From contig JASEFK010000004.1 in NCBI GenBank assembly GCA_030019255.1, positions 15,370 through 79,369 on the forward strand: a stretch of DNA of 64,000 nt, in the 5' to 3' direction. Numbering within the stretch: position 1 is the first letter of the stretch; each line of letters opens with the position of its first letter. The stretch is from Actinomycetota bacterium (GTDB lineage: Bacteria > Actinomycetota > Geothermincolia > Geothermincolales > RBG-13-55-18). The translations under genes were made by a program, and so were the position numbers. Under the pieces are notes generated by a model. It worked only from the letters and a program-made list of their open reading frames with translations. It had not been told where the DNA came from and ran no database searches. This document shows positions 17,878 through 37,428 of this stretch, one piece after another.

Positions 17878-18684
17878 GTGAGGGCCATGGAAGAGGAAGA
17901 GATCGGACCGGAGCGCACAGAAATCGCTAAAGTAGTGGCAATCGCCAACCAGAAAGGCGGCGTGGGAAAGAGCACCACGGCGATAAATCTGGGCGCCTAC
18001 CTGGCCCTGGAGGGAAAGCGGGTGCTGGTTATCGACCTGGACCCCCAGAGTAACGCCACCAGCGGCCTGGGGGTGGGCCCCTGTCTTGAGGGGCAGCAAA
18101 TATATGACGTGTTGGTGAACGAGGTGCCGCTGAAGGAGGTCATAGTTCCAACTTCCACCCCGGGCCTTGACCTGGCACCTTCCTCCCTGCGCCTTGCCGG
18201 GGCGGAGGTGGAGTTGGTTTCCGTGTTCTCCAGGGAGAGCAGGCTGAGGAAGGGCATCGAGCCCGTAAAAGGGGAATACGACATTATATTGGTTGACTGC
18301 CCCCCGTCGCTCGGACTGCTCACCGTCAACGCGCTTGCTGCGGCTGATGAGGTGCTCATCCCCATACAGTGCGAATACTACGCCCTTGAGGGGCTGGTGC
18401 TGCTGCTGCGCACCATAGAGAAGATAAAGGTATATTTAAATCCGGGGCTTCGCATAGGAGGCATACTTCTGACCATGCATGACCCGAGGACCAACATATC
18501 CAGACAGGTCATGGAGGAGGTGAGGAAACAATACCCGAGGGAGACGTTTCGTACGGTGATTCCCAGGAACGTTCGTTTGAGCGAGGCACCGAGTTACGGA
18601 AAGCCCATCTCGGAATATGATCCGTTCTCTAAGGGGGCACTGGCCTATCATGAGTTGGCGAAGGAAGTGATGTCACATGGCTAA
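17878..18684 (+). CDS. parA: Chromosome partitioning ATPase ParA/Soj
   Basis: Deviant Walker [14 protein letters not shown]. 268 aa. Confidence 0.92.
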
Positions 18685-19543
18685 GAGAGGCTTGGGAAAG
18701 GGGCTCGGGGCGTTAATCTCATCGAGCACTGCCGCGGAGCAGCCGCGCTACGAGATGATACCGGTGGACAGCATCTCCCCCAGCCCGCTTCAACCGAGGA
18801 AAAAATTCAAGGAGGAAAGCCTGGAGGAGCTCGCCGCATCTCTCAAGGAGCACGGTGTGGTGCAGCCGGTTATCGTGCGCCCCTCGGGGGCGGGGTATGA
18901 GCTCCTGGTGGGGGAAAGAAGGTGGAGGGCCGCCCAACTGGCGGGATTGAAATCCATCCCTGCGGTGGTGAGGGAGGCCGAGCCTTCGGAATGTCTGCAG
19001 GTGGCGCTGGTAGAGAACCTGCACCGGGATGACCTCAACGGCATCGAGGAGGCGAGTGCCTACCGCCAGCTTATGGAGGAATTCGGCCTGACACAGGAAG
19101 AGATATCCCAAAAAGTGGGGAAATCCAGGTCGGCGGTGGCCAACGCGCTCCGCTTGCTTCAACTTCCAGTAGAGATTCAGGCTTCCGTGGTGGCGGAGGA
19201 GATCACCGTGGGCCACGCCCGGGCGCTCCTGGCGCTTCAGGGAGACCCGTATCAGGAAATCCTCCTCAAGCGGATAATCGAGGAGGGGCTCTCCGTGCGG
19301 GAGACGGAGGAATTGGTGCGCAGGAGGCTGAGCGGCGCGGGGGCTGAAAAGGAGAGAACCAGGGAAAAGCCGAAACAACTCCAGCATTACGCGGAACTCA
19401 TATCCGCCAGCCTGCAGGCGCGGGTTAAGGTGGTGCAGGGCAAGAGAAAGGGCAAAATAGTCATCGAGTTCAAGGGAGAGAAGGACCTGAAAAGGTTGCT
19501 CAAGGAGATCGGCGTCCAGGTCGAGGAGGCCACCCCCGATTAA
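18677..19543 (+). CDS. parB: Chromosome partitioning protein ParB/Spo0J
   Basis: 288 aa. ParB box [13 protein letters not shown] and an HTH. It overlaps parA by 8 nt. Confidence 0.92.
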
Positions 19544-22135: not shown

Positions 22136-22996
22136 ATGAACGAAGAGACGGCCAAGGCGCGCGGAGAGGCGCAAGGGGTCACGGGGGGAGAGGACATCGG
22201 CTTCGAGCTTCTCCTCCGCTACCTGGGCTCCCAGTTCGGGCTCGACTTTAAGCAATACAAGCCGAATTACCTGCGGCGGCGCATAGGCGTGCGCATGAGG
22301 GCCACCGGCTGCGTGGACTATCTCCAGTACCGCCAGTACGTGCGGCAGCACCCCGAGGAGTACGAGCGGCTCATCAACGACCTCACCATCAACGTCACGG
22401 AGTTCTTCCGCGACCCGGACGTCTACGAGGCGCTGCGCTCGAGTGTCATCCCGGAGATCATCAACTACAAGAGGAAGATCGGCTCCTACTATCTCAGGGC
22501 CTGGAGTGCCGGCTGCGCCACCGGGGAGGAGCCTTACTCCCTTTCCATTTTATTCCTGGAGGCCGTCGGGGAATGCGACCCGCGCGAACCTTGGATGATG
22601 CGTATCACGGCCACCGATCTGGACGACAAGGCCCTGAAGGCGGCCAGGGAAGGATACTACGAGAGCGTCAGGCTGTTGCCGGGCATGGACCTGCGGAGAT
22701 ATTTCCACCAGGACGGGAAGGGTTACCGGGTGAAGGAGGAGGTCAAGAGGCCGGTCCGTTTCATGCTCCTGGACCTGGTGCGAAAACCCCCCCTGCGCCA
22801 CCTGGACCTCGTTCTGTGCCGAAACGTGCTCATCTATTTCGAGAGGGAGAAGCAAGCGAGGATACTGGACATCTTCAGGCAGTGCCTGCGGGCCGGCGGC
22901 TTCCTGGTCCTGGGAAAGAGCGAGACCATCGTGGGATCGGGGGGTTCCAGCTTCAGGCCTTACCGCAGGAAGGAGAGGATCTACGCCAGGATATGA
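22136..22996 (+). CDS. cheR: Chemotaxis protein methyltransferase CheR
   Basis: CheR N-terminal helical domain plus the SAM methyltransferase domain (...LDLVLCRNVLIYFEREKQARIL...). The ATG at 22136 (MNEET...) is the likely start of the 342-aa listed ORF. Confidence 0.85.
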   Translation: MNEETAKARGEAQGVTGGEDIGFELLLRYLGSQFGLDFKQYKPNYLRRRIGVRMRATGCVDYLQYRQYVRQHPEEYERLINDLTINVTEFFRDPDVYEALRSSVIPEIINYKRKIGSYYLRAWSAGCATGEEPYSLSILFLEAVGECDPREPWMMRITATDLDDKALKAAREGYYESVRLLPGMDLRRYFHQDGKGYRVKEEVKRPVRFMLLDLVRKPPLRHLDLVLCRNVLIYFEREKQARILDIFRQCLRAGGFLVLGKSETIVGSGGSSFRPYRRKERIYARI

Positions 22997-23223
22997 GGGC
23001 CGCGGCAACGGAGCCCGACCTCACCGGAGCGGTTGCGGAGGGCCGGGACCGACGGTCGCAGGGAGCCCTAATCGAGGTGGGGAAAGGCGAAGGGAACGAG
23101 CAAGACCTGCGGAAAGAAGCGCGGGGCGTCGAGGCGAGCGGATCGCCGCCCGGGGAAGGAAGCAAAAGGGCATAAAGGCGGACAAATACCTGCTCCCCGG
23201 AAGGAAGGACGGCGGACAGAATA

Positions 23224-23251
23224 TAAAACTATTATGACTGACTGCCGATTA
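23224..23251 (+). promoter_or_regulatory. Sigma-28 (FliA/SigD)-type promoter upstream of the MCP genes
   Basis: TAAA at 23224-23227, a 16-nt spacer, and GCCGATTA at 23244-23251. This matches TAAA-N15/16-GCCGATAA. It lies about 90 nt upstream of the MCP ATG at 23344. Confidence 0.55.
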
Positions 23252-23343
23252 AGCCAGTGGCAGCATGGCCGGATTGCTTTTCCAGCCCGGGCAGCAGCAT
23301 GAGACCCGGGCCTCCGGCCGCGAGGCGATGGAGGAATAGGGAC

Positions 23344-24723
23344 ATGGATAAGGCGGCCGCGAACGTTGACGACACAAGGTTCAAGATGAGCACAAGACGA
23401 GTGGCTTTTACCGCCGGCATCGCCTTCGTGGTCCTGGCCCTGGTGGCGTGCCTGCTAGGCCTGATAGTTCTTTCCGCCGGAGCGTCCAGGGCCCGCCGCG
23501 CGGCCGAGGCGGGAGAACTGGAGGCTGCCAGGGAGAACGCGGATTCCGCCGAGGGCCTCCTCCGGGCAGCGCTGGGGGCCTTCATCGCCCTGCTGGTACT
23601 GGAGGCCGTTCTGGCGGCGGCGTGGATCACCCTGCTCTACCGGTGGATAACGGGAACGGTGAAGGAGATGACCTGGCAGATCCAGCAGGTCTCCGCCGGC
23701 GACGGGGACCTCACCCGCCGCGTCGTGGTGCGTGACCGGCGAGTGTTCGGCAGCCTGGCCGATAGCATCAACGCCATGATCGGGGCCCTGCAGGGCTCGG
23801 TGGCGGAGATAAGCCGCATAGCTTCCGACCTGAACAACAGCGCCGAGCAGATGTCGGCGGTCATCCAGCAGATGAACGCCTCCAGCCAGGACATATCCAA
23901 CACCATCGCGCACATCGCCAAGGGCGGCGAGGAGCAGGCCCGGAGGGTCCTGGAAACCTCTCACTCCATGGAGCTCATGAACACTTCCATCCAGGAAATG
24001 GCGGAGAAGGCCGACCTCTCCAACCAGGCGGCCATGGAGGCCATCGAGATCGCCCAGAGGGGGGCCGAGGCGGCGGTGGATACGGCCGCGGCCATGGAGG
24101 TCATCCGCCGGGCCGCCGAGGCGGTGGTGGAGGCGAGCACCGGGCTCGAGGAGCGCTTCATGCAGATCGGGATCATCGTGGACGTCATTACCTCCGTGGC
24201 CGACCAGACCAACCTCCTGGCCCTCAACGCGGCCATCGAGGCGGCCCGCGCCGGAGAGCAGGGAAGGGGCTTCGCCGTGGTGGCCGAGGAGGTGCGCAAC
24301 CTGGCGGAGAACTCCCGGAAGTCGGCGGAACAGATAGCCAACCTCATAAGGGAGATCGAGGCCGGGGTTAACCGCATGAGGTCCAGCATAGACTCGGCCA
24401 TCGAGCAGGTGAAGGGCGGCACTGAGGTGGTGGAGAAGGCCGGCAGGGCCTTGCAGGAGATAGCGGTGACCATCCAGACCACCTCGCGCTACGCCAGCGA
24501 GATAGCAGAGATAACCAGGCGGCAGGTGAAGGAGAACGAGGAAGCCCTGAAGGCCATCACGGAGATAGCCAGCATCGCCGACGAGACGGCCGCCTCCTCC
24601 GAGGAAGCCTCCAGCACGGTGGAGGAACAGACGGCCTCCATGCAGGAGATGGCCGCGGCGGCTGCCGAGCTGGCGGCCATGGCGGAGAAGCTCAACAATC
24701 TAGTGAGCGGCTTCAAGGTCTGA
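23344..24723 (+). CDS. Methyl-accepting chemotaxis protein (two TM segments, a loop of about 30 aa, HAMP and MA domains)
   Basis: Two TM segments flank a short loop. HAMP-like segment. The MA signalling domain carries [45 protein letters not shown]. The ATG at 23344 sits behind a GGAGGA SD. Confidence 0.85.
24202..24302 (+). repeat. 101-nt near-identical segment shared with the second MCP gene at 25518-25618
   Basis: gaccagaccaacctcctggccctcaacgcggccatcgaggcggcccgcgccgg(a/g)gagcagggaaggggcttcgccgtggtggccg(a/g)ggaggtgcgcaacct. 2 mismatches in 101 nt. Confidence 0.8.
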
Positions 24724-24746
24724 GGCGCGGAAGGGGTGGGGAGAAA

Positions 24747-26039
24747 ATGGACTCTCGCGAAAAGGAGATGAAGAAGACCGCCGAGAGCATCGCCAGGTTC
24801 GTGACCGTCACCTCGGCCATAGTCTTTCCCCTGGGGATAGCCCTGGACATAGGCATCGCTTGCGCGGCGGCTAAGCTCTCCTGGAACCCCTTCCTGGTGG
24901 GCCTCCTCTTCGGCTTCATCGCCATCGCGGTGACCATGTCCGCGGCAGCCCTTTACATTGTGCCGGTCTATCTTTTACCCGTCCGTTACCTGCGGCAGAT
25001 ACTGGAGCGACTGCGTGACAAGGACTTCACCGTCCATGCCGACGAGGAGAGGAGCGGGCTCCTGCGCGGCTTCGCCGTGGCCCTCAACGACCTGGCCGAC
25101 TCCATGCGCGCCATGTTGAGGGAGCAGGCGGAGACGGCGGACCAGCTCACCTCGGCCAGCGAGATGATGTCCGGCGTGTCCCGGGAGACCACGGAGACGG
25201 CCCAGGAGACGGCCAACACCGTCTCCCAGCTGGCGAGGGGGGCCGAGGAGCAGGTCAACGCCATCGTGCAGGCCCAGAACACGGTGAGCGAGATAGTGAG
25301 CGAGATCTCCCGGGTGGCGGAGAGCTCCCAGGAGGCCAACCGCTTCAGCCAGCAAGCCCAGGAGACGGTGGCCAAGGGGGTGATGGCCGTGCAGCGGGCC
25401 ACGGAGAAGATGCAGCAGATAAAAGCCACCGTGGACGCCTCCGCGGACGCAGTCAGGGAGTTGGGGGAGCACTCCACGCAGATCGGTCTCATCGTCGACG
25501 TTATCACCTCCATCGCTGACCAGACCAACCTCCTGGCCCTCAACGCGGCCATCGAGGCGGCCCGCGCCGGGGAGCAGGGAAGGGGCTTCGCCGTGGTGGC
25601 CGGGGAGGTGCGCAACCTAGCCGAGGGGTCGGCCAAGGCGGCCTCCCAGATCGCCAACCTGGTGAGGGAGATACAGCGGGGGATCGACCGCACCATCCAG
25701 GGAATGGAGGGCGGCACCCTGGTCGCGGATGAGGGTAACATGGTGGTGGGCGAGGCCAGGGAGATGCTCAAAGAGATCGACGAGGCCTCGAGGGCCATCG
25801 CCGAGAAGATATCCGCCATCTACGAGGCCACCCAGCAGATCTTCGAGAAGAGTGGCAAGGTGGTGGAGGCCATGAGCTCCATCGCGGGCATCTCGGAGGA
25901 ATCGGCGGCTTCCACCCAGGAGGTGTCCGCGTCCATCCAGGAACAGACGGCGGCCATGGAGGAAGTGACCGCCGCCGCCCAGGAATTGGAAGAAATTGCC
26001 AACAGGCTGCGGGCCATGCACCGGCAATTTAGGCTTTAG
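24747..26039 (+). CDS. Methyl-accepting chemotaxis protein paralog (membrane-anchored, no periplasmic ligand domain)
   Basis: 430 aa. N-terminal TM hairpin and an MA domain. It shares a 101-nt segment with the upstream MCP, with 2 mismatches. Confidence 0.88.
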
Positions 26040-26116
26040 GCGGGAGGTTTCGTTGAGGGCTGCTGCCGGTTGGGATATAGTGAATTCGAGGGCCGGCGCG
26101 GTCGGCGCGGGAGGAA

Positions 26117-26590
26117 ATGGAAATGGCTGAGGAAGCGAGGGCAGCCGAGGAGATCCAGCTGGTGGTCTTCGGCCTGGGGAAAGAGGAATTCGCCGTGGAG
26201 GTGACCCAGGTCCGGGAGATCATCCGCATGCAGGAGATAACGCGGATGCCCAAGAGCCCCCACTTCGTGGAGGGGATCATCAACCTCCGGGGGCAGATAA
26301 TCGCCGTCATCGATCTGGCCAAACGGCTGAACATCCCCTCCGGGGAACGGGGCCCCGAGACGAGGATCATCGTGGTGGAGGCCGAAGAGGTCAAGGTGGG
26401 GATGATCGTGGACTCCGTCTCCGAGGTGCTGCGGGTGAGCTCCGAGGCGGTGGAGCCCAACCCCTCCCTGGCCGCCGACGTGTCCGCCGCCTTCCTCCAA
26501 GGGGTGGTGAAGCACGACAACCGCCTCATCATCCTTCTAGACCTGACCAAGATACTGTCCATGGAGGAGATGGCCGGCCTCGGGTTTTAG
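26117..26590 (+). CDS. cheW: Chemotaxis coupling protein CheW
   Basis: 157 aa, CheW-like domain (QLVVFGLGKEEFAVEVTQVREI...). Confidence 0.9.
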   Translation: MEMAEEARAAEEIQLVVFGLGKEEFAVEVTQVREIIRMQEITRMPKSPHFVEGIINLRGQIIAVIDLAKRLNIPSGERGPETRIIVVEAEEVKVGMIVDSVSEVLRVSSEAVEPNPSLAADVSAAFLQGVVKHDNRLIILLDLTKILSMEEMAGLGF

Positions 26591-26769
26591 GAAAGGGGAG
26601 AGAGCTTTCGATATATAGATAGGAATGCAGTATCCCGGTCGGCAGCCCAAAGCGGCCGGGGCGTCACTGGATACGTCGGTAAACATCAAGAGGACGGGAG
26701 CTGAGAGGTATGGCCGGGAAGAAAGCGAGTACCGGGGACTCCGATAAACCAAAGGGAAAGGAGGGGAGG

Positions 26770-27135
26770 ATGGCGCCGACCGTTCTGATCGTCGACGACG
26801 CCCTGTTCATGCGCATGATGATCCGGGATATCCTGTCCAAGGACGGCTTTGAGGTGATCGGAGAGGCCGAGAACGGCGTGGAGGCGGTGGAGCGCTACAA
26901 GGAGATGCGGCCGGACCTGGTGACCATGGATATCGTCATGCCCGAGATGGACGGCATCGAGGCGGTCAGGCAAATCATGAAGATAGACCCCAACGCCAAG
27001 ATACTGATGTGCAGCGCCATGGGCCAACAGCCGCTGGTGGTGGAGGCGCTCGAGGCGGGGGCAAAGGACTTCATCATCAAACCCTTCCAGCCCTCGAAGG
27101 TCATCGAGGCGGTCGAGAAAGCGCTCAAGAGCTGA
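26770..27135 (+). CDS. cheY: Chemotaxis response regulator CheY
   Basis: Single receiver domain (LIVDD...DLVTMDIVMPEMDG...KDFIIKPF). The ATG at 26770 sits behind a GGAGGGGAGG SD. The upstream in-frame ATG at 26710 is the alternative. Confidence 0.85.
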   Translation: MAPTVLIVDDALFMRMMIRDILSKDGFEVIGEAENGVEAVERYKEMRPDLVTMDIVMPEMDGIEAVRQIMKIDPNAKILMCSAMGQQPLVVEALEAGAKDFIIKPFQPSKVIEAVEKALKS

Positions 27136-27160
27136 GCGTTTCTCCCCTGAAGGGGAGGAG

Positions 27161-28240
27161 GTGGATTTTTTGCCCCGCAAGATCAGGGTGCTGATAGTCG
27201 ACGATTCCGCCTTGGTGCGCAAGCTCCTGAAGGACATCATAAACGACGATCCGGACATGGAAGTGGCGGGAATAGCCGCCAACGGGGTGGAAGCCATCCG
27301 GGCCGTCGCCGAACTCCAACCCGACGTCATGACCATGGACATCCACATGCCCGAGATGGACGGCCTCACCGCCCTGGAATACATCATGCGCAAGATGCCC
27401 CTTCCCGTGGTGATGCTCAGCGCCATGGCCCAGAGGGGGGCGGCGGCCACCATTAAGGCCCTCGAGCTTGGGGCGGTGGACTTCATCACCAAGCCCTCCC
27501 ACTATCCCTCGGCGGTCAAGGAAGTGCGGGAGGAAGTAATCCTCAAGATAAAAACGGCCTTCCAGGCCCGGGAACGCGTGAAAAGGGGTTACCCGAAGCC
27601 CAGGGAGAGGAGAAGGGCCCTTCCGGTTATAAAGCCCGGGAGACAGGAGAAGCTGGTGGTCATCGGGGCATCGGCGGGCGGGCCGCGCGCCCTGGCGGAG
27701 ATCATGCCCATGTTTCCCCGAGACATCCCGGCGGCCATAGTCATCGTCCAGCACATGCCCAGCGTTTTCACCCGCTCCTTCGCCGCCCGGCTAAACGCCA
27801 TATCGGAACTACCGATCCGGGAGGCCGAGGAGGGAGAGGAGATCAAGCCGGGAACGGTACTGGTGGCCCCCGGGGGGAAGGATCTCATCGTGAGTTTGGA
27901 CCGCAGCGGGCTGGGGAGGGTGGAGCTCATGGATTCCGCCAACCGCACCGGGGCCACCCCCCGCATCGACACCACCATGATCACCGCCGCCGAGACCTTC
28001 GGCCCCCGGACCATCGGGGTAATCATGACCGGGATGGGATCGGACGGGGCCAGGGGGATGGAAAGGATAAAGAAGAACCGGGGAAGCACCATCGCCCAGG
28101 ACGAGGCAAGCTGCCTGGTGTTCGGCATGCCCAAGGTGGCCATCGACAGGGGCCACGTGGACTGGGTGGTCTCCCTGGAGAAGATACCGGAGAAGGTCCT
28201 GGAGCTTTTGCAGGCGCCCGAGCAGGAGCCTTCGAGGTGA
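27161..28240 (+). CDS. cheB: Chemotaxis methylesterase CheB (receiver plus methylesterase)
   Basis: 359 aa. N-terminal receiver and a C-terminal CheB_methylest domain (GASAGGPRAL...GMGSDGA). Confidence 0.9.
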   Translation: MDFLPRKIRVLIVDDSALVRKLLKDIINDDPDMEVAGIAANGVEAIRAVAELQPDVMTMDIHMPEMDGLTALEYIMRKMPLPVVMLSAMAQRGAAATIKALELGAVDFITKPSHYPSAVKEVREEVILKIKTAFQARERVKRGYPKPRERRRALPVIKPGRQEKLVVIGASAGGPRALAEIMPMFPRDIPAAIVIVQHMPSVFTRSFAARLNAISELPIREAEEGEEIKPGTVLVAPGGKDLIVSLDRSGLGRVELMDSANRTGATPRIDTTMITAAETFGPRTIGVIMTGMGSDGARGMERIKKNRGSTIAQDEASCLVFGMPKVAIDRGHVDWVVSLEKIPEKVLELLQAPEQEPSR

Positions 28241-28246
28241 CGGCCC

Positions 28247-30265
28247 ATGGACATGGACGTTTCCCAGTACAAGGAACTGTTCATCAACGAAGCCCAGGAA
28301 CACCTCGAAGCCCTGAACCAGGCCATGGTGGAACTGGAAAAGGATCCCGGGAACTCCGACGTGCTCACCGAGATCTTCCGATCCGCGCACACCCTGAAGG
28401 GTATGTCCGCCACCATGGGCTTCGACCAGCTGACGGAGCTGACCCACGAGATGGAGAATGTCCTCGACGGGCTGCGCAGCGGGGACATGGAGGCCACCAC
28501 CGAAATCGTGGATCTCCTCTTCAGCTGCCTCGACCTCCTGGGGTCCATGTTGGCGGCCATAGCCGAGGAGAGCGGCCGGACCGTGGACACCCAGCCGGTC
28601 ATCCAGGCCCTGCGGGAGGCTTCCGGAGGAGGGAGGCCCTCCTACGAGGTCGCGGTCCGATACGGCAAGTCGGAAGACCGCGAGGCGCCCAGCCCGAGCG
28701 GAGAAGGGGTGGGAGAGGCCGGGGCCCTTCCGGGGGAGGGGGCGGAAAGGCCCCCCGGAAGGGAGAGGGAGGTGCGCCTGCGGGTGACCCTGGACAGGGA
28801 TTGCGCCCTGAAGTCGGTGCGGGTGTTCATGATCTTCAAGAAGCTCTCCCGGGTGGGAAGGATAACCGGCTCCCAACCCTCCATGGAGGAGCTGGAGGAC
28901 GGGAAGTTCGAGCGCTCCTTCGAGGTCAGCCTGCTCACCGCGGAGAGCGAGGAAAGCCTGCGTCGCGACCTGATGACCATAGCCGAGGTCTCGGACGTGG
29001 AGTTCTTGGCCGCCGGGGAGTCCGCGGTCGTGGAGGCGGAGGAGGAATCGCGGGAGGCCGTCGAGAGGGTGGCTCCGGAGCCACCTCCCGGGCTCGAGCA
29101 TCCGGTGGCGGCACCGGTGCGCACCCAGAGCGTCAGGGTGAACATCGCCAGGCTGGACAACCTCATGAACCTCATCGGGGAGCTGGTGATAAACCGTACC
29201 CGGCTGCAGGAGATAGCCTCCTCCTACAACATTCCCGAGCTCAAGGAAGCCCTGGCGCAGACGGCGCGCCTCACCGCCGATCTCCAGGATGAGGTGATGA
29301 AGACGCGCATGGTTCCCGTAGACCATATCTTCAACCGCTTCCCGCGCATGGTGCGCGACCTGGCCAAGAGCCGGGGGAAGGAGATCGATTTCACCATGGA
29401 GGGGAGGGACATCGAACTGGACCGAACCATCCTGGACGAGATCAGCGATCCCCTTATGCACCTCTTGCGCAACGCCGTGGACCACGGCATAGACAGCCCG
29501 GAGGAGAGGGAGGCACGAGGAAAGCCCCGGCGGGGCAGCATCCGGCTGGCCGCCAGGAGGGACCGCAACTACGTGTCCATAGAGGTCTCCGACGACGGCC
29601 AGGGGATCGACGAACGCAAGATCTACGAGGCCGCGGTTCGGGCGGGGCTGGTGTCCCCGGAGGAGAAGAAGAGTCTCAGCGACGAGGACATCCTGCGTCT
29701 CTTGACCACGCCGGGTTTCTCCACCGCCCAGGAGGTGAGCGGGGTTTCGGGACGGGGGGTGGGCCTGGACGTGGTACGCAGCAAGGTGGAGTCCCTCGGG
29801 GGGATGCTGGTCATGAAGACCAGCAGGGGGGAGGGGACGACCTTCGCCATGAAGCTGCCCCTCACCCTGGCCATCATCCAGGCGCTGCTGGTCAGGGTGC
29901 AGGGTGAGACCTACGCCATCCCCCTGGGGACGGTCTCGGAGACGGCCGTGGTATCCTCGCACGAGATAAGGTACGTCTCCAACCAGGAGGTGATATTCCT
30001 TCGCGACGAGACCCTGCCCCTGCTGAGACTGGCCCGCTGCCTGGGCCTGCCGGACGAGGACGGCCGGGGAACCTTCCCCGTGGTGGTGGTGGAGGTAACG
30101 CCTCGCACGGTGGCCATAGCCGTGGACGAGCTGCTGGGGCAGCAGGAGATCGTCATCACCAGCCTGGACAAGTTCCTGAAGGGGATAAAGGGTTTCGGCG
30201 GCGCCACCATCCTGGGCACGGGCGAGGTGGCGCTCATACTGGACATACCGAGCCTGATATCCTGA
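28247..30265 (+). CDS. cheA: Chemotaxis histidine kinase CheA
   Basis: 672 aa. Hpt domain (FRSAHTLKGMSATMGF), dimerisation domain, HATPase_c and a CheW-like C-terminus. Confidence 0.95.
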   Translation: MDMDVSQYKELFINEAQEHLEALNQAMVELEKDPGNSDVLTEIFRSAHTLKGMSATMGFDQLTELTHEMENVLDGLRSGDMEATTEIVDLLFSCLDLLGSMLAAIAEESGRTVDTQPVIQALREASGGGRPSYEVAVRYGKSEDREAPSPSGEGVGEAGALPGEGAERPPGREREVRLRVTLDRDCALKSVRVFMIFKKLSRVGRITGSQPSMEELEDGKFERSFEVSLLTAESEESLRRDLMTIAEVSDVEFLAAGESAVVEAEEESREAVERVAPEPPPGLEHPVAAPVRTQSVRVNIARLDNLMNLIGELVINRTRLQEIASSYNIPELKEALAQTARLTADLQDEVMKTRMVPVDHIFNRFPRMVRDLAKSRGKEIDFTMEGRDIELDRTILDEISDPLMHLLRNAVDHGIDSPEEREARGKPRRGSIRLAARRDRNYVSIEVSDDGQGIDERKIYEAAVRAGLVSPEEKKSLSDEDILRLLTTPGFSTAQEVSGVSGRGVGLDVVRSKVESLGGMLVMKTSRGEGTTFAMKLPLTLAIIQALLVRVQGETYAIPLGTVSETAVVSSHEIRYVSNQEVIFLRDETLPLLRLARCLGLPDEDGRGTFPVVVVEVTPRTVAIAVDELLGQQEIVITSLDKFLKGIKGFGGATILGTGEVALILDIPSLIS

Positions 30266-30308
30266 TAATACAGGGGCGTCGGGCACGAGGACCGGGAAAG
30301 GAGGAGTC

Positions 30309-30923
30309 ATGGCCGAAAGGAAAGGGCTTACCCCCCTCCAGCTGGACGCGCTGAGGGAAGTGGGGAACATTGGCTCGGGAAACGCCGCCGTAGCCCTTTC
30401 CACCATGGTGGACAAGAAGGTGATGCTGAGCGTACCCCGTGCTTCCCTGGTCCCCCTGGTCAAGGTCTCCGACCTGGTGGGCGGGGCGGAGACGCCGGTG
30501 GTGGGCATCTACCTGCACATAAGCGGAGACGCCTCGGGCAGCATGCTCCTCCTGCTGGAGGAGCACAGCGCCCGGGAGCTGGCCCACCTCATGGTCTCCG
30601 GCACGGAGGGCGGGGAGCTCACGGTGGTAGAACAGTCCGCCCTCCAGGAGACGGGAAGCATCCTGGCCGGTTCCTACCTCAACGCCCTCTCCCAGATGAC
30701 CGGCATACTCCTGAAGCCCTCAGTGCCCGGCTTCGCCATGGACATGGCGGGGGCCATCATCGATTTCATCCTGGTGGAGATAAGCCAGTCCGAGGACTAC
30801 GTCCTGGTCATCGAGACGGAATTCGACGTCCTGCAGCACAAGATAAGGGGACACCTGATCCTGTTCCCGGACCTGGGGTCCCTGGACATCATCCTGGGAA
30901 GGCTTGGGGTGACGGCGGATTGA
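30309..30923 (+). CDS. cheC: CheY-P phosphatase CheC
   Basis: 204 aa. CheC-family repeats (EVGNIGSGNAAVALS ... ETGSILAGSYLNAL). Confidence 0.85.
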   Translation: MAERKGLTPLQLDALREVGNIGSGNAAVALSTMVDKKVMLSVPRASLVPLVKVSDLVGGAETPVVGIYLHISGDASGSMLLLLEEHSARELAHLMVSGTEGGELTVVEQSALQETGSILAGSYLNALSQMTGILLKPSVPGFAMDMAGAIIDFILVEISQSEDYVLVIETEFDVLQHKIRGHLILFPDLGSLDIILGRLGVTAD

Positions 30924-31450
30924 CGGAGGAGACCCTGACCGAGAAAGTGATCAACGTGGGCGTGGCCGAATACTACGTGACCCACAACCCCCACATCCTG
31001 GCCAGCTTCGGCCTGGGGAGCTGCGTGGGCGTGGCCCTTTACGACGAGAAGAAGAAGATCGGCGGCCTGGCCCACATCATGCTGCCCGATTCCAGGGCCA
31101 TAAGCAAGCCGGGGAAGCCGGGCCGCTGCGCCGACACCGCCATAAGGGCCATGGTGGAGGAGATGGAGAAGCTGGGATCCCGGCGGAAGGACATCAAGGC
31201 CAAGATAGCTGGCGGAGCCTGCATGTTCACCATCCCCGGCGCCACCAACCCCAAGAACGTTCCCGGCCCGGCCATCGGGATGCAGATAGGGGAGAGGAAC
31301 GTGGAGGCGGCCAAGAGGACGCTGCGGGAGCTTAAAATCCCCCTAGTGGCGGAGGACACCGGAGGCAATTACGGACGGACCATGCGCTTCAACGTGTCCG
31401 ACGGCACGGTGGTTATAAGCTCCATAAGGCATGGGACCAAGGAGCTCTAA
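30920..31450 (+). CDS. cheD: Chemoreceptor glutamine deamidase CheD
   Basis: 176 aa. CheD family (VGVAEYYV...GLGSCVGVALYD). The start overlaps the cheC stop. Confidence 0.85.
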   Translation: MTEETLTEKVINVGVAEYYVTHNPHILASFGLGSCVGVALYDEKKKIGGLAHIMLPDSRAISKPGKPGRCADTAIRAMVEEMEKLGSRRKDIKAKIAGGACMFTIPGATNPKNVPGPAIGMQIGERNVEAAKRTLRELKIPLVAEDTGGNYGRTMRFNVSDGTVVISSIRHGTKEL

Positions 31451-31457
31451 GGTGACC

Positions 31458-31796
31458 ATGAAGGGCGAGGGCGTGGAGGTGTCCCGGGAGGCCATCGCCA
31501 CCCTGGCGGCGCAGGCGGCCTGCCAGGTGCCGGGGGTGGTATCTTGCTACCGCAGCCCGGTGGACAGCCTGGCCTCCAGGGTGAAGCGGGAGTTCGTGCA
31601 CAAGGGCATCAAGGTGGAAAACGTCGAGGGGGCATACCGCCTGGGCGTCCACCTGAGGGTGGAATACGGGGTGAACCTTCCTTCACTGGCGCGGGAGGTG
31701 AGGGAAAAGGTACGGGAGTACCTGGAGGGCCTTACCGACGTGAAGGTGGAGGATGTGGAGGTGATCATCGAGGACATCGAGCCCCCGCCTTCCTGA
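31458..31796 (+). CDS. Asp23/Gls24-family (alkaline-shock-like) protein
   Basis: 112 aa from the ATG at 31458. MKGEGVEVSREAIATLAAQAA...VKVEDVEVIIEDIE is typical of the family. Confidence 0.7.
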   Translation: MKGEGVEVSREAIATLAAQAACQVPGVVSCYRSPVDSLASRVKREFVHKGIKVENVEGAYRLGVHLRVEYGVNLPSLAREVREKVREYLEGLTDVKVEDVEVIIEDIEPPPS

Positions 31797-31878: not shown

Positions 31879-32883
31879 TCAGGAGCTCTCCCCCTTATCC
31901 TCGGGAGGATTGAAGTAGGCGGCGATTGCCCCCGCCAGGGCCGGGCCCAGCCCCGCCGGTATTTCCAGGCCGGGAGGCCATTCCACGACCACGCAGGGCA
32001 TGCGGGTCTCCCTCAGCAGGGGGTAACTCCGGGCCTCGGGAGAGGGCACGGGGACGCCGAGCGCATCCTTCATCCGGGAAGCCACGAGTTCCGCCAGCCG
32101 CCTGCCGCGGGGAGAGAAGTACTTTTTACTTCCGAAGAAGAAGACGCTGACCCGGTCGGAATCGCCGGGGCGGAAACCAACGACCGCGTCCGCCCCCCTC
32201 TGGTTGGCCGCCTGGGCCCGCTGGCTCTCCGACGCGGGCGCGGCGGGGCCCCCGGTCAATATGGTAAATATTCCCATATCACGCAGAACCAGGGAAGCAC
32301 GGCGTAGTGCCTCCGCGAGCTCGATCTGATCCGGGTCGAGGTCCAGCACCACTAGCCGTTCCCTCAGGCCGCGGTCCTCGCCGTCCCTAAGGGCCTCATG
32401 GACCACGGCCACGCTGGTCTCCTTCATGGCGTGCCTCAGTCGCAGGAGGCAGGAGATGGTGGAGGTTCCGGCGATCCCGTCCACGGGAAGGCCCATGTCG
32501 TGCTGGAAGGCACGCAGTGCCCGGTCGGTGTCCTGGCCGAAGATGCCGTCCTCGCGGCCGGCGTTGAACCCCAGTCGGTTGAGGTAGGACTGGAGCTCCC
32601 TCACGTCGTCGCCGCGGAAGGGCGGCACGCGCAGGTAGAGGAAGCGGTCGCCGAGGCGGAAGGAGGCCTCCACCAGCTCGCGCCAGGTGACCTCGTCCAC
32701 GCGGCCGTCCGGTCGCAGTCCGCGGGCGGACTGGAACTGGCGCACTGCCGCCTCTGTGGCCTCACCGAAGGAGAGCTCGCGCATCTCCGCCTCCATGCCC
32801 GGCGGCGAATAACCCAGTTCGTGGAGCCTTTTCTGGACGTCGGCCACCGGAAGTCCGCGGTCACCGCGGGAGATGGGCTGCAC
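31879..32883 (-). CDS. Two peptidoglycan-binding (PG_binding_1) domains plus a degenerate Amidase_3 (MurNAc-LAA-like) domain lacking the catalytic His residues
   Basis: 334 aa. The two PG_binding_1-type repeats run DVQKRLHELGYSPPG...FGEATEAAVRQFQ and DVRELQSYLNRLGFNAG...FGQDTDRALRAFQ. The C-terminal region is colinear with Amidase_3. VVLDLDPDQ replaces VVIDAGHGG, and VVGFRPGD replaces ISIHADA. ETRMPCVVVEWP matches the E..P.VLVE motif. Confidence 0.65.
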   Translation of the reverse strand: MQPISRGDRGLPVADVQKRLHELGYSPPGMEAEMRELSFGEATEAAVRQFQSARGLRPDGRVDEVTWRELVEASFRLGDRFLYLRVPPFRGDDVRELQSYLNRLGFNAGREDGIFGQDTDRALRAFQHDMGLPVDGIAGTSTISCLLRLRHAMKETSVAVVHEALRDGEDRGLRERLVVLDLDPDQIELAEALRRASLVLRDMGIFTILTGGPAAPASESQRAQAANQRGADAVVGFRPGDSDRVSVFFFGSKKYFSPRGRRLAELVASRMKDALGVPVPSPEARSYPLLRETRMPCVVVEWPPGLEIPAGLGPALAGAIAAYFNPPEDKGESS

Positions 32884-32886
32884 GTC

Positions 32887-35016
32887 TCATTCCCCCTCGT
32901 GGACGGGAAGGGTGAATTTGAAGGAAGACCCCTTTCCCGGCTCGCTTTCCACCCAGATGCGACCACCGTGGCTTTCCACGATGCCCTTGGATATGACCAG
33001 CCCCAGCCCCAGGCCGCCGGCGGAGCGGGTGGAGTCGGTCTCCACCTGGTAGAACATGGTAAACAACCTCCTCTGCTCGTGGAGGGGGATGCCGGGCCCG
33101 GTGTCCCGGACCTCGAATTCCACCATCCCCTCCTCCCGCGAGCGGCGGGCGGAGACCTCCACGGTCCCGCCCGGGGGAGTGAACTTGATGGCGTTGCCGA
33201 TGAGGTTCTCCAGCACCTGGTGGACCCTCCACACGTCTACGCTCACCGGGGGAAGCCCCTCCTCCACGGAGGATACGAGGCCCAATCCCCTTTCCGCCGC
33301 CTGGTTCCCGTATTCCGAGACCGCGTTGGCGATCAGCTCTTCCACGGGGGCGGGCCATTTCTTCCCTACCAGGCGGCCTTCTTCCAGGCGAGTGATGTCC
33401 AGGAGGTCGTTGATGATCTTGGTCATCTGGTCTGCTCGGGCGTTGATTATCCGAATCTTGTCCATCTGGAAGGGGGTGAGCTCTCCCAGCTCGCCGAACT
33501 GGAAGGCGTCGGCGTATCCCTTGATGATGGAGAGGGGGGTGCGCAGTTCGTGGGAGGCGATGGCTATGAAGTCCGATTTCATCTTGTCCAGCACGGAGAG
33601 CTCTTCGTAGGCCCTTTCCAGGTCCTGGTGGCTCTGCTCCACCATGGCCTCCAGTCGCCGGCGCTCGCTGAGGTCGTGGGCGATGCCCACGATACCCACC
33701 AGGTTACCTCCCCGGAAGACAGGCGCCGAGCTTATCTGCACCGGAAGCGGGGATCCATCGGCGCGGCGCAGCGAGGTCTCGAAGAAGACCTTCTCTCCGC
33801 GGCGACGCCTCTCTAACATCCGCTCCACCTTGTCCACCTCTTCCGGGACCACGACGTCCCGGGGCTCCTTGCGCATGAGCTCGTCGGGATGTGCGAGGCC
33901 CAGCATGTCCAGGAAGGCCTGGTTACAGAAGGTAAAACGGCCATCGGCGTCCATGGCGTAGAAACCGTCGTTGAGGCTCTCGATGAGCAGGTTGAGGTAG
34001 TCGGTGGTCTCGGCCAGACGGCGCTCCAGGCGCACGTATTCGCTCACCTCCTCGAAGAGGAGCAGGGCCTCCCGCACGTTGCCCTGTTCGTCCAGCAGGG
34101 GATGAAGGCGGACGCGGTGAAAGTGGTCCGTCCCCCCCACCACCTGGTGCACCCGCGGCTGCTCGAAGGAGCGCCCCTCCACCAACACCCGCCGCAGGAT
34201 GTGCTTCCAGTCGGCACGGAATTCCTGGGGCATGATGTCCAGGGCGGGCAGCCCCTCGAGCTCTTGCGGATCGATGCCCATGGCCTCGATCACCCACTCC
34301 TGCATGGACCGGTTGCAGCGCAGGACTCGGAAGTTGCGGTCCAGTACGGCGATCTTTACGGGCACGCTCTCGAAAATGCCCGCCTCGCGTTCCGAGACCT
34401 CCCTGAGAACCGCCTTTTCCCGGGCCTCGGCGGTGATGTCTTCCACGAGCACCAGGAAGAGGTCGCCCCGCGACCCCTCCCGGGAAGCCGTATTAGCCGG
34501 ACTTATCCGCACGCGGCATACCCCGGAGCGGTCCTCGAGGAAGTACTGCTCGAAATCGCGCTCCAGGGTCCCCCCCTGGCTACGGGCCTTCTCCAGATAG
34601 AGGGACCAGCTCCCGAAGAAGGGGGGCAGGAAGGCCTGGTCGAGGCGGCCGCCGGGCTCCAGGGCGCCATGGTGCCCCGCTTGGCGGGGCAGATCGCGGG
34701 CCGCGGCGTTGGTTCCCAGGATGCGCCCGCTCCCGTCCACCAGTATGGCGGGCACGGGGAGGAGGGAGAGGAAGGCTTCCCACCGGACCATGGAAGGGTG
34801 AGCGGGACGGCTCCGCCGGGCGGAGTGCCTGAGGAGAAAGAAAGTGGAAACGGGAATCGATGCCAGTGTTAAGGCGGCGAAAGCCACCCCTGCGGCCCTC
34901 CAACCCGCCGCCGTGAAGGCCAGGCAGAGCAGGGCCGGCAGGAGGGGTGCTGAGGCGGCAAGAAGGGGTGGGCTAACGCGCCTGTTCATCCCCCTCACCT
35001 TCCTCCGGGCGGGCAC
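32887..35016 (-). CDS. Membrane-anchored multi-PAS sensor histidine kinase
   Basis: 709 aa. Two N-terminal TM segments, at least two PAS domains, HisKA (IASHELRTPLSIIKGY) and HATPase_c (GLGLGLVISKGIVESHGG). Confidence 0.9.
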   Translation of the reverse strand: MPARRKVRGMNRRVSPPLLAASAPLLPALLCLAFTAAGWRAAGVAFAALTLASIPVSTFFLLRHSARRSRPAHPSMVRWEAFLSLLPVPAILVDGSGRILGTNAAARDLPRQAGHHGALEPGGRLDQAFLPPFFGSWSLYLEKARSQGGTLERDFEQYFLEDRSGVCRVRISPANTASREGSRGDLFLVLVEDITAEAREKAVLREVSEREAGIFESVPVKIAVLDRNFRVLRCNRSMQEWVIEAMGIDPQELEGLPALDIMPQEFRADWKHILRRVLVEGRSFEQPRVHQVVGGTDHFHRVRLHPLLDEQGNVREALLLFEEVSEYVRLERRLAETTDYLNLLIESLNDGFYAMDADGRFTFCNQAFLDMLGLAHPDELMRKEPRDVVVPEEVDKVERMLERRRRGEKVFFETSLRRADGSPLPVQISSAPVFRGGNLVGIVGIAHDLSERRRLEAMVEQSHQDLERAYEELSVLDKMKSDFIAIASHELRTPLSIIKGYADAFQFGELGELTPFQMDKIRIINARADQMTKIINDLLDITRLEEGRLVGKKWPAPVEELIANAVSEYGNQAAERGLGLVSSVEEGLPPVSVDVWRVHQVLENLIGNAIKFTPPGGTVEVSARRSREEGMVEFEVRDTGPGIPLHEQRRLFTMFYQVETDSTRSAGGLGLGLVISKGIVESHGGRIWVESEPGKGSSFKFTLPVHEGE

Positions 35017-35350
35017 CGCGAAGCTCCCCCCATATCCAGCTCCAGTACCTGGCCACGGTGGGCAGGGCCAGGGATATGGCGACGGTCATGGGGATGGAGG
35101 CCACCAGCAGCTTTATCACCAGGCCGGTGCGGGGGTCGGGTTCGGGGAGCCCCCAGGCCCCGAGCATGAGAAGAGTCCAGGAGACGGGCAGGGGGAGGAG
35201 GAAGAAGAAGACCGACAGGCCGAAGAGGCGGTAATAGGGTGGTATCTCCAGGGCCTCTCCCAGCCTCCTACTGAGGGACATGAGCAGCAGCAGCATGGCC
35301 CCCACGGAGAGGGGCCCGATGATGTACAGGGACGAGGACAGGTAGATCAT
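34973..35350 (-). CDS. Small polytopic membrane protein, second half of a split pair
   Basis: An ATG at 35350 (MIYLSSSLYIIGPL...) overlaps the upstream stop as ATGA. About 125 aa and 3-4 TM. Its 3' end overlaps the HK start by about 44 nt. Confidence 0.5.
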   Translation of the reverse strand: MIYLSSSLYIIGPLSVGAMLLLLMSLSRRLGEALEIPPYYRLFGLSVFFFLLPLPVSWTLLMLGAWGLPEPDPRTGLVIKLLVASIPMTVAISLALPTVARYWSWIWGELRGARPEEGEGDEQAR

Positions 35351-35652
35351 CTTCCCAGCATCAGGCGGTAAGCCCGGTAGACCACCACGAAAAGGCAGAC
35401 GCCCGCCAGCGCCGGCCAGATCGCCAGGTGAAGATATATGGCCACTATCGATTCTCCCACCGAGAAGATGAACGTGCTCAGCCCCATGAGGAGGAAGAAG
35501 GGGATGATGAGAAAAGGATAGGTGCGACCCCCAAACTTGTCCTCCGCCAGCCGGCATATTCCGTAGAAATAGACCAGCACCAGGGCGGTGGCGGAGGTGT
35601 TGTAGAACCACAGGAAGAGGGAAAAGGTCTTCAGCCAGTCGTAGGACGTCAC
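35347..35652 (-). CDS. Small polytopic membrane protein, first half of a split pair
   Basis: 101 aa with about 3-4 hydrophobic helices. It lies between the receiver gene and the HK. Confidence 0.5.
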   Translation of the reverse strand: MTSYDWLKTFSLFLWFYNTSATALVLVYFYGICRLAEDKFGGRTYPFLIIPFFLLMGLSTFIFSVGESIVAIYLHLAIWPALAGVCLFVVVYRAYRLMLGR

Positions 35653-35690
35653 CGCTCTCCCCTTCTCGGCCAGAATTCGCGCCCGGGTCC

Positions 35691-36086
35691 CTAGGAAGAG
35701 CCCGAGCTGCGCCTGCGCTCGTCCAGGATGCGCCTCACCTCGGTGAGCAGCTCCTGCTTGCTGAAAGGCTTGGTGATATAGCCCGCCGCCTTCATCACCG
35801 AGAGCCCGATCATCTTATCGATGTTCTGGGTGCGGGCGGTGATGAAGGCCACCGGCGTGTCCTTCGCTTCGGGATCGTTCTTGATGCGGCGAAGGACCTC
35901 CCAACCGTCCACCCTGGGCATCATGATGTCCAGGAGTATGAGGTCGGGCTTTTCCCGGAAGGTCTTCTCCAGCGCTTCCTCGCCGGAGAAAGCCGAGACG
36001 GTGGTGTACCCCGCGTTCCCCAGGAAGAGCTCGATCAGCTCCACCATCTCGCGATCGTCGTCCACGATGAGGATCTTTTCCGCCAC
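35691..36086 (-). CDS. Stand-alone CheY-like response-regulator receiver
   Basis: 131 aa. KILIVDDD...LILLDIMMPRVDG...YITKPF. The start is immediately adjacent to the KaiC-like stop. Confidence 0.9.
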   Translation of the reverse strand: MAEKILIVDDDREMVELIELFLGNAGYTTVSAFSGEEALEKTFREKPDLILLDIMMPRVDGWEVLRRIKNDPEAKDTPVAFITARTQNIDKMIGLSVMKAAGYITKPFSKQELLTEVRRILDERRRSSGSS

Positions 36087-36896
36087 CTACTTCACCTCCC
36101 CCTTCCCGGCTTTCCCCTTGGGGCCGAACACCTCGACGAAGGCGTCGATCTCCCTCTTGCGGGGCAGGCCGGAGAGCACCCCCTCCCGGTCGGAGAACGG
36201 CTCGCCGATCAGGATTCCCCGTTCGGTGATGCGAAACTCCCTTATGGACTTGTCGTGCGAGCTGGCCCTCTGCTTGAGCACCAGCATGGCGCGGGCGATG
36301 GAGGAATCGAGCTCCACGTAGCGCAGGATGATGACCGCGTCCACCAGGTAGGAGATGCCGTACTGCGCGGCGGCCATGTCGCCGGTGATGCCCGGGTCTT
36401 CCTGGGTTACCAGGGCGGTGAGGCCGTGCCGGAGGAGGGCGTTGGTGAAGGTGAAGGCAATCTCCCGCATCTTTACCGGGTCGCGGGTGAGCCTCTCCAG
36501 GTGGGAGATGGAGTCCACGAGTATCCTGCGCGCTCCCAGCTCCTGCACCATGGTGTCCAGGAGCCCCCCGGAGGCCTGGGCCTGCTCGAAGAAGATCTCG
36601 GGAGAGGTGAAGAGGATGCGCACCAGGCCTCTGCGCTCAAGGTCCTGGAGGTCGAAGCCCAGGGAAATGGCGTCGCGCAGGAGCTTCTTGGGAAAGTGCT
36701 CGAAGGTCACTATGAGCCCCGGTTCCCCGAATTCTTCGGCGCCCCTGGCGATAAATTCCAGTCCCAGGCAGGTTTTTCCAGTTCCCGGTGCCCCCAGAAC
36801 CAGGGTCACCGAACCCCGGTACGGCCCGCCGTCCATCATCTCGTCGAGCCTGGGGATGCCGGTGGAAGCCCGTTCCCTTACCGATTCCTCGTTCAT
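36087..36896 (-). CDS. Single-domain KaiC-like RecA-superfamily ATPase (COG0467-type signalling ATPase)
   Basis: 269 aa. GIPRLDEMMDGG...LVLGAPGTGKT Walker A, VTFEH (compare KaiC VTFEE), ILVDSIS Walker B. Confidence 0.85.
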   Translation of the reverse strand: MNEESVRERASTGIPRLDEMMDGGPYRGSVTLVLGAPGTGKTCLGLEFIARGAEEFGEPGLIVTFEHFPKKLLRDAISLGFDLQDLERRGLVRILFTSPEIFFEQAQASGGLLDTMVQELGARRILVDSISHLERLTRDPVKMREIAFTFTNALLRHGLTALVTQEDPGITGDMAAAQYGISYLVDAVIILRYVELDSSIARAMLVLKQRASSHDKSIREFRITERGILIGEPFSDREGVLSGLPRKREIDAFVEVFGPKGKAGKGEVK

Positions 36897-37153: not shown

Positions 37154-37428
37154 GTGATCGTGCTAGGCGGGGAGCTAGCGGTGCCCTGTACCCGCAATCC
37201 GCTATAGCGGGGCTTAATTCCCAACTGAGGCTCTCCGGTCTTGAGTATGGCGCGCCGGCAAGCGGCGTTGAAGGTCGGGTCCTGCGCAACGGGAACTTGC
37301 GAACCCCGTCAGGTCCGGAAGGAAGCAGCGGTAAGCAAATCTTCCCGGGTGCCGCAGACCAACCTGACCGGAGCAGGCTACCGGCGTAGCGCTCGGGGTC
37401 GGGAGTCGAAGGCGGGTGCACGATCACA
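37154..37428 (+). ncRNA. ffs: Signal recognition particle RNA, large Bacillus-type with an Alu domain
   Basis: The domain IV motif ccGTCAGGTCCGGAAGGAAGCAGCgg lies at 37303-37330. The 5' region GTGCTAGGCGGGGAGCTAGCGGTGCCCTGTACCCGCAATCCGCTATAGCGGGGC is near-identical to B. subtilis scRNA. The 5'/3' terminal pairing is gtgatcgtgc/gcacgatcac. About 275 nt, immediately upstream of dnaX as in Firmicutes. Confidence 0.85.

Follow-up and report, generated by a model that had tools for sequence, protein, structure and literature searches.

A probable CwlM orthologue without zinc ligands or phospho-tail at the end of a KaiC-like/histidine kinase operon in Geothermincolia

A 64,000-nucleotide stretch of contig JASEFK010000004.1 (positions 15,370 to 79,369; assembly GCA_030019255.1) from an Actinomycetota bacterium, here called the window, contains a gene (31879..32883, minus strand) for a protein of 334 amino acids (aa) with two PG_binding_1 domains and a degenerate Amidase_3 domain. 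Our analysis indicates that this gene, which starts with GTG, is probably the CwlM orthologue of Candidatus Solincola-like Geothermincolia. Its product has no signal peptide and is probably a cytoplasmic, non-catalytic regulator of peptidoglycan (PG) precursor supply, the control of which seems to have shifted to a signalling operon. The CwlM family is already characterised as a cytoplasmic regulator (PMC4946905, PMC6180346); a preliminary description of this DNA did not recognise it. Membership in this known family largely explains the finding, and what is new is that a short CwlM without the tail stands in a different regulatory context. A literature search for CwlM in bacteria other than the Mycobacteriales, or in Geothermincolia, yielded nothing specific.

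In mycobacteria CwlM is an essential protein and one of the major PknB substrates; there is still debate on the way in which it controls MurA and MurJ. The mycobacterial protein has degenerate zinc (Zn) ligands and activates MurA (PMC4946905). Its partners in mycobacteria include MurJ, which it contacts at a cytoplasmic linker, and FhaA (PMC6180346).

Assignment to the CwlM family

The databases contain more than 1500 homologues of the window protein. The closest named ones, with 82% identity, are from Candidatus Solincola, which belongs to the class Candidatus Geothermincolia of the phylum Actinomycetota. The sequence of Rv3915 from M. tuberculosis was used solely as a search query. It retrieved P0121, the representative of a cluster of 1775 member sequences, with 100% identity over 406 aa, and also P0237, which is named M. 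tuberculosis, together with close relatives that carry the NCBI name "CwlM". We take P0121 as an authentic CwlM reference because its numbering reproduces the published sites, namely the REEEL motif at 176-180 and T382/T384. The window protein and P0121 are colinear over aa 7-301 with 33% identity (BLASTP, E 2e-33). Common to both is a linker between the PG_binding_1 domains with the pattern EAS[FY]RLGxRxLY; this CwlM-family motif reads ELVEASFRLGDRFLY in the window protein (aa 69-83) and ALKEASYRLGARTLY in P0121. Both the window protein and M. tuberculosis CwlM also have an Arg at the position of the second Zn-binding His.

The assignment to the CwlM family is settled by the gene context of the relatives, which is the canonical cwlM slot. 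P0110 and P0105, which are 40-43% identical to the window protein, and the mycobacterial P0240 share the order DUF6049, MurJ, ..., trxB, trxA, cwlM, followed by the convergent genes parB, parA, rsmG, jag, yidC, ..., dnaA. This context, complete or truncated with the contig, was present in all 74 species-representative loci from GTDB that lie outside the clade of the window gene; a match to TrxA was located upstream of cwlM in 72 of them, and the kinase operon described below was found in none (0/74). Within the family, the genes of the window clade form a monophyletic group in 100 of 100 neighbour-joining bootstraps.

Gene, domains and fold

The start is supported by a Shine-Dalgarno sequence before the GTG and by homologues that begin at the same residue. 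The open reading frame (ORF) has a G+C content of 0.84 at third codon positions (GC3) and of 0.49 at second positions (GC2), which is typical of real genes in this window. The G+C content of the window is about 65%, apart from the part from about 6 to 18 kb, in which it falls to 50-55%. An ORF on the opposite strand (32398-33816, plus strand, 472 aa) and further ORFs that overlap the gene were dismissed as shadow ORFs of this 65% GC region, because it is the minus-strand frame that has the coding GC3/GC2 pattern and all of the homologues.

Pfam finds PG_binding_1 (PF01471) in two stretches with an E value of 1.1e-38. The first domain (32671..32871, minus strand like all parts of the gene) covers aa ~5-71 according to Pfam, a match to 1lbu over aa 4-71 and the model helices H11-73; the second (32449..32616) covers aa 90-145 in Pfam. 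A linker helix follows (32377..32412, aa 158-169), which is the counterpart of the REEEL helix of M. tuberculosis CwlM. REEEL has been described as the interface between CwlM and MurA, based on an AlphaFold2 (AF2) multimer prediction that is backed by mutants in vitro (PMC12723410). The pseudo-catalytic domain with the Amidase_3 fold (31909..32364, aa ~174-325) was delimited by fold, profile and alignment.

The Pfam score of this last domain for Amidase_3 (PF01520, aa 200-301) is just below threshold, with 25.9 bits where the gathering score is 27. Structure and profile searches nevertheless show that the C-terminal half is a genuine Amidase_3 homologue. An AF2 model of the window protein, built on 93 relatives, has a mean pLDDT of 94 and a pTM of 0.89. 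The best 19 matches of a Foldseek search in the PDB were all Amidase_3 enzymes, AmiC2, CwlV, AmiA, Ami1, LytH and CwlD among them, with a probability of 1.0; their TM(target) values were 0.47-0.65, except for the longer chains 9a7d (0.26) and 4bin (0.34). A profile of the C-terminal domain of the family matched Amidase_3 sequences of the PDB with an E value of 7e-20. The preliminary description had proposed tandem peptidoglycan-binding domains and a C-terminal half that is colinear with Amidase_3, and these searches bear out both parts.

NCBIfam contains no CwlM model, and the matches there were only partial, of the PG-binding domain to SleB and similar families. A search of representative sequences with the full-length protein gave 597 clusters at E <= 1e-30, a list that consists mostly of long proteins with multiple PG_binding_1 repeats and that is usable for the count only.

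Loss of the zinc site

The active-site positions were read in alignments anchored on P0110, which is 40% identical and has the canonical motifs DAGHG, E, SIHLNS and VHVE. At the first Zn ligand the canonical His is replaced by Pro184 in the motif LDLDPDQ (codon CCG, 32334-32332). The second ligand, a Glu, is lost together with a loop of ~17 residues, and the third, again a His in canonical enzymes, is Arg238 in GFRPGD (codon CGC, 32172-32170). The catalytic Glu is kept as Glu301 in VVVEWP (codon GAA, 31983-31981); it lies in the last core strand, and at least 90% of the family have a Glu at this position. The substitution of the Zn-ligand positions and the retention of a VLVE-type Glu had been claimed before, and the alignment to Amidase_3 agrees with both. 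Within the window clade the first His position is occupied by P, A, E, S, L or N, so that no alternative ligand is conserved there. The window protein is without the His-Glu-His triad and, as all three ligands are missing, it cannot work as a Zn-dependent N-acetylmuramoyl-L-alanine amidase.

The dead site is not peculiar to this gene. His-Glu-His-Glu was intact in only 6 of the 93 aligned relatives and in 8 of the 74 syntenic orthologues. Among the latter, the commonest patterns were G/gap/R/E (33/74) and P/gap/R/E (8/74); these proteins share the loop deletions of the window protein and likewise have short C-termini. The sampled orthologues were ranked by their similarity to the window protein, which biases the sample in favour of short forms. 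By these alignments x/gap/Arg/Glu is the commonest state in the sampled family, and the window protein is a typical "short-form" CwlM. Uncharacterised short forms from Acidimicrobiia and other Actinomycetota (P0105, L019-L090) are 38-46% identical to it; they have the same loop deletions, the x/gap/Arg/Glu pattern, short tails and no signal peptide. They differ in that they have stayed in the trxB-trxA-cwlM-parB slot, while the kinase operon occurs only in the window clade.

A minority of the orthologues (L018, L024, L056, L064, L068, L070, L075, L085 and P0110, i.e. L008) has a complete His-Glu-His-Glu set and long loops, also without a signal peptide. From their sequences, such syntenic H-E-H-E orthologues could be active cytoplasmic amidases, possibly with an AmpD-like role in muropeptide recycling. 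Their existence is a hint that a cytoplasmic enzyme was the ancestor of the regulator.

Predicted location in the cytoplasm

A hydropathy analysis of the window protein detected no transmembrane (TM), signal-like or hydrophobic segment and no lipobox; the maximum KD19 value over the N-terminal ~48 residues was -0.13. Signal peptides were likewise absent from about 90 orthologues that were inspected, including the 74 syntenic ones. In M. smegmatis, CwlM was assigned to the cytoplasm by cysteine-accessibility mapping and is phosphorylated there (PMC4946905). The window protein is hence predicted to be cytoplasmic. Because of the missing export signal and the cytoplasmic location of CwlM in M. 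smegmatis, its PG_binding_1 domains are unlikely to touch mature peptidoglycan.

Comparison with known proteins

The mycobacterial CwlM (Rv3915 / MSMEG_6935) has the same domain order, two PG_binding_1 domains followed by Amidase_3, with homology over the full length and no signal peptide. Its gene, like the window gene, is proximal to the origin and convergent with parAB, and its Zn ligands are degenerate. The differences are in the details. The window protein is 72 aa shorter; its Zn positions are Pro/deletion/Arg, whereas those of M. tuberculosis CwlM are Arg/Glu/Arg, and at the catalytic position the two proteins have Glu and Asp, respectively. The mycobacterial protein contains a loop of ~17 aa after strand 1, which carries the Zn-Glu, and another loop after the strand with the catalytic Glu; both are missing from the window protein. 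Wholly missing, too, is the phospho-Thr tail (GKNDRPTGTFTFAELL...), since the window protein ends with ...YFNPPEDKGESS. In mycobacteria PknB phosphorylates this tail at T382/T384/T386, and the tail is needed for MurA activation and for binding of FhaA (PMC4946905, PMC6180346). Without it the window protein should be unable to use the PknB/FhaA switch.

A variant at one of the reported phosphosites was seen in the reference itself: P0121, the representative of the 1775-member M. tuberculosis-type cluster, has Ile386 (TGTFIF) instead of the Thr (TGTFTF) that is given in the literature and present in other mycobacteria.

The active Amidase_3 enzymes (CwlV 1jwq, AmiC2 5emi, C. difficile 4rn7, AmiA/B/C, Ami1 Rv3717, CwlD and LytH) share the fold and the motifs R..AN, S..G..LA and LRETxMP..vE with the window protein. 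Unlike the window protein with its Pro/deletion/Arg site and predicted cytoplasmic location, they are exported proteins with a His/Glu/His Zn site. A similar concept, in which a hydrolase homologue or a small adaptor steers PG synthesis or hydrolysis by protein-protein contact, is known from EnvC/NlpD, which have a LytM fold, and from ReoM, a kinase-controlled MurA regulator of Firmicutes. The folds of these proteins are unrelated to that of the window protein; EnvC/NlpD act on amidases in the periplasm and ReoM acts via ClpCP-dependent degradation of MurA.

The gene ends a conserved signalling operon

The cwlM-like gene is the last of six genes on the minus strand (31879-36896). The first one (36087..36896) encodes an ATPase of the RAD55 family with a Walker A motif (GAPGTGKT) and a Walker B motif. 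This protein is KaiC-like and not a double-domain (CI+CII) KaiC: it has 269 aa and one domain, scores 177 bits against a KaiC cutoff of 408 bits and matches only the CII half. It is followed by a receiver-only response regulator (RR) of 131 aa (35691..36086), in which the DD, D53, T and K residues are present and an output domain is absent. Next in order are two small polytopic membrane proteins without a Pfam family, sm1 (35347..35652, 101 aa) and sm2 (34973..35350, 125 aa), and a histidine kinase (HK; 32887..35016). The latter is membrane-anchored by 2 TM segments and has multiple PAS domains, an intact H-box and a HATPase_c domain. Judged by these motifs, the ATPase, the HK and the RR look competent. 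All clade genomes that were sampled, with identities between 82% and 47%, have the order KaiC-like ATPase, RR, two small membrane proteins, HK and, as last gene, cwlM.

In agreement with the preliminary description, which placed the gene at the end of an HK operon, the stop codon of the HK lies 3 nt before the GTG. The junction (32881..32898, minus strand) consists of a Shine-Dalgarno sequence GAGGGGG (32898-32892) inside the 3' end of the HK gene, the HK stop TGA (32889-32887), the 3-nt spacer and the GTG (32883-32881). A gap of -4 to +3 nt and a GGAGG-type Shine-Dalgarno sequence within the upstream gene occur in 9 of 12 clade loci, from which cwlM is predicted to be translationally coupled to the HK. 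A scan of the operon for promoters and terminators gave counts no higher than in shuffled sequence. In the window, cwlM continues the frame of the HK after the TGA and a single codon (GAC), and five other clade loci have the same 3-nt spacing. A fusion of HK and CwlM by read-through of this stop codon was considered and rejected; the gaps in other loci are -4, -10, +2, +37 or +85 nt, and because of this variable spacing the fusion is not a conserved feature.

In one subclade with about 47% identity (L007, L016) the HK is cut down to a PAS remnant of ~81 aa (L007 9759-10004), and KaiC-like ATPase, RR, sm1, sm2 and cwlM are all kept. The core of the operon also exists elsewhere. In Chloroflexota a KaiC-like ATPase with two small membrane proteins (L091 6001-7428) is found without RR, HK or cwlM, and sm2 is homologous (E 1e-7) to the 118-aa protein that is located after this ATPase. 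The KaiC-like gene and the two membrane genes (34973-36896 in the window) can be regarded as an uncharacterised three-gene module of Geothermincolia and Chloroflexota. A second KaiC-like paralogue with 56% identity occurs in the same Solincola-type genome (L092). In the KaiC-like systems of Pseudomonas a KaiC-family ATPase is likewise encoded together with an HK and an RR (bioRxiv 10.1101/2022.01.26.477890). Unlike such KaiC-like/HK/RR modules outside cyanobacteria, the operon in the window has a single-domain ATPase and two small membrane proteins following it, and it ends with a CwlM homologue.

Position in the origin region

The window represents the chromosomal origin region, and the minimum of the cumulative GC skew near 8-10 kb agrees with this. 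The genes rtcB, gyrA, gyrB, recF, dnaN and dnaA (652-11463) are on the minus strand, followed by yidC, jag/khpB, rsmG, parA and parB (14932-19543) on the plus strand. The pair parA-parB (17878..19543) is the one that in other Actinomycetota lies convergent to cwlM as its canonical neighbour. In the window the slot that cwlM-trxA-trxB hold in those bacteria is occupied by ddl, the gene for a D-Ala-D-Ala ligase that adjoins parB (19540-20487, minus strand), and by a class I/II aminotransferase gene (both genes together 19540-21952, minus strand). Since ddl sits there, the position convergent to parB again contains a gene for PG precursors. A ten-gene che operon with asp23 follows (21968-31796, plus strand), and then come the cwlM-like gene and its operon.

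The cwlM-like gene is therefore 12.3 kb away from parB, with ddl, the aminotransferase gene and the che operon in between; it is still convergent with parAB and close to the origin. The genes trxB and trxA are absent from the 64-kb window and the canonical trxB-trxA-cwlM-parB slot is not kept. Upstream of cwlM in the window is the PAS-HK of the KaiC-like/RR operon, in place of the trxB-trxA pair of mycobacteria. One rearrangement in the ancestor of the Geothermincolia would explain this most simply: cwlM would have been parted from parB and the upstream trxB-trxA replaced by the signalling operon.

The gene could in principle be a paralogue, with a second, canonical cwlM beside parB. We rejected this because the slot contains ddl and the window has a single cwlM-like gene: a tblastn search of the 64-kb window with four CwlM queries found one locus only. 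Also, the best 80 GTDB loci for cwlM include no Geothermincolia assembly more than once.

Two further features near the origin may be mentioned. Between dnaA and yidC, at the usual site of rpmH-rnpA, two adjoining ORFs (103 and 229 aa; 12700-13697, plus strand) match the UPF0236 transposase family at profile positions 2-91 and 158-313 and represent a transposase that is split or degraded. Beside dnaA, at the putative oriC, a 246-aa protein (11513-12253, minus strand) has the unusual pairing of a HATPase_c domain fused to a winged helix-turn-helix of the IclR/MarR-like type.

Proposed function and alternatives

Taken with the mycobacterial work, the analysis suggests that the window protein is most likely a non-catalytic cytoplasmic regulator of PG precursor supply. 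It would act in the cytoplasm by protein-protein contacts, and it would tune this supply by stimulating MurA and/or by acting on the flippase MurJ. From its sequence, the phospho-tail switch of PknB and FhaA would not be used. The gene context suggests that the amount of the protein, and possibly its activity, would be tied to the operon that it terminates, with control shifted there at least at the level of synthesis.

Several observations weigh against this proposal. The 64-kb window contains none of the genes for MurA, MurJ, PknB and FhaA. The co-transcription of HK and cwlM is inferred from the gene spacing, and a second copy of cwlM could conceivably lie elsewhere in the genome. The residues T382/T384/T386 of the mycobacterial tail align with P327/D329/G331, and the N-terminal insert with T43 is absent. 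In the linker helix E163, the equivalent of E177 in M. tuberculosis, is conserved in at least 90% of the sequences. Of the MurA-contact residues, E178 is matched by Ala164 and E179 by a gap; both of these glutamates are predicted to form salt bridges with MurA (PMC12723410). Because the phospho-Thr positions, the T43 insert and E178/E179 are all missing, the activation of MurA may not be conserved.

Some of these losses are shared by other bacteria. Many syntenic actinobacterial orthologues lack the phospho-tail and the long loops that mycobacterial CwlM has, and the short, tail-less form without Zn ligands is the commonest one in the similarity-ranked sample. This points to a conserved core function of CwlM that is independent of Thr phosphorylation. 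The Geothermincolia clade can be seen as a natural experiment, in which the regulatory input has apparently been swapped for a two-component/KaiC-like module. Its interest lies in an ancestral, phosphorylation-independent CwlM core and in a possible two-component/KaiC-like input into the control of wall precursors. The window protein, compact with its 334 aa and modelled with very high confidence, is well suited for probing this core function.

A more far-reaching version, which we put forward as a tentative possibility, is that the CwlM checkpoint was rewired in Geothermincolia. As the post-translational output of the membrane-embedded KaiC-like/HK/RR module, which would replace PknB/FhaA, the tail-less CwlM would have its action on MurA or MurJ gated by the phosphorylated RR or by the kinase. 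Such a role is suggested by the lack of a DNA-binding output in the operon.

The same lack, together with the receiver-only RR, would fit a different function, which we consider unlikely. The window protein could be an output or accessory subunit of the KaiC-like/HK/RR module and not an activator of MurA. Its dead groove and its PG-binding domains would then bind a cytoplasmic muropeptide or UDP-MurNAc-peptide, and the protein would either report the status of precursors or recycling to the kinase or take a signal from the phosphorylated RR. The predicted HK-cwlM coupling, seen in 9 of 12 clade genomes, speaks for this, as does the fact that cwlM stays with the KaiC-like, RR and membrane genes where the HK is truncated (L007, L016). 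Consistent with it are also the MurA-contact glutamates, which are not conserved, and the groove, which has lost the metal ligands and yet shows more than 90% conservation of Glu301 and of the LRETRMP and AN motifs. However, active Amidase_3 enzymes also have LRETRMP and AN as generic structural motifs, so that their retention need not mean that a ligand is bound. Furthermore, the Chloroflexota have the core of KaiC-like ATPase and two membrane proteins without cwlM; because of this the link of cwlM to the operon could be a transcriptional convenience only.

Like the proposed regulator of precursor supply, the protein in the preliminary description was a non-catalytic regulator or sensor, which binds PG. 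A regulatory rather than catalytic role is indeed likely; an action on the wall is unlikely in view of the missing export signal and the cytoplasmic CwlM. For the protein to be an extracytoplasmic, wall-binding regulator analogous to dead hydrolases of the EnvC/NlpD type, it would have to be exported by a non-classical route. The two bona fide PG_binding_1 domains would suit this function, and PG-hydrolase activity of recombinant CwlM in vitro is on record (Deng et al. 2005, as cited in PMC4946905). Nevertheless we regard it as very improbable, because neither the window protein nor the about 90 orthologues provide a signal peptide, lipobox or TM segment, CwlM has been mapped to the cytoplasm and is phosphorylated there (PMC4946905) and its partners MurA, FhaA and the cytoplasmic linker of MurJ are all intracellular (PMC6180346).

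Least credible of all is a remaining hydrolase activity with a non-canonical site, in which Glu301 and the acidic LDLDPDQ cluster (Asp181, Asp183 and Asp185 at the start of the domain) bind another metal: Asp183 and Asp185 are not conserved even in the clade (DAAEGD, DAAAGH, EAEEGD, AGPPAG), which led us to reject this metal site, the loop with the Zn-Glu is deleted, most of the family, including M. tuberculosis CwlM, have an Arg at the position of Arg238, and amidase activity of CwlM was not detected in a later study according to the statement in PMC6180346 that cites PMC4946905.

Other genes in the window

On the plus strand, divergent from the KaiC-like operon, are the gene for the bacterial large signal recognition particle (SRP) RNA (37158-37423, 218.7 bits), which is directly upstream of dnaX-ybaB, then dnaX, ybaB and the genes that follow. 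After ask-asd there are tandem paralogues of Rce1-like (CPBP) intramembrane proteases (42786-45089, plus strand), the second of which has a match to a B-box-type zinc finger; a zinc-ribbon protein of 562 aa comes next after this pair. A gene set for the nickel-pincer cofactor of the lactate-racemase type extends over 53531-57876. It comprises a LarA-like gene (53531-54820, plus strand), a gene for the nickel-insertion protein LarC (55494-56717, minus strand) and a gene with a weak match to the NAD-synthase family, which may be LarE (56938-57876, minus strand). A tRNA-Ser gene with the anticodon TGA is located at 62353-62440 on the plus strand.

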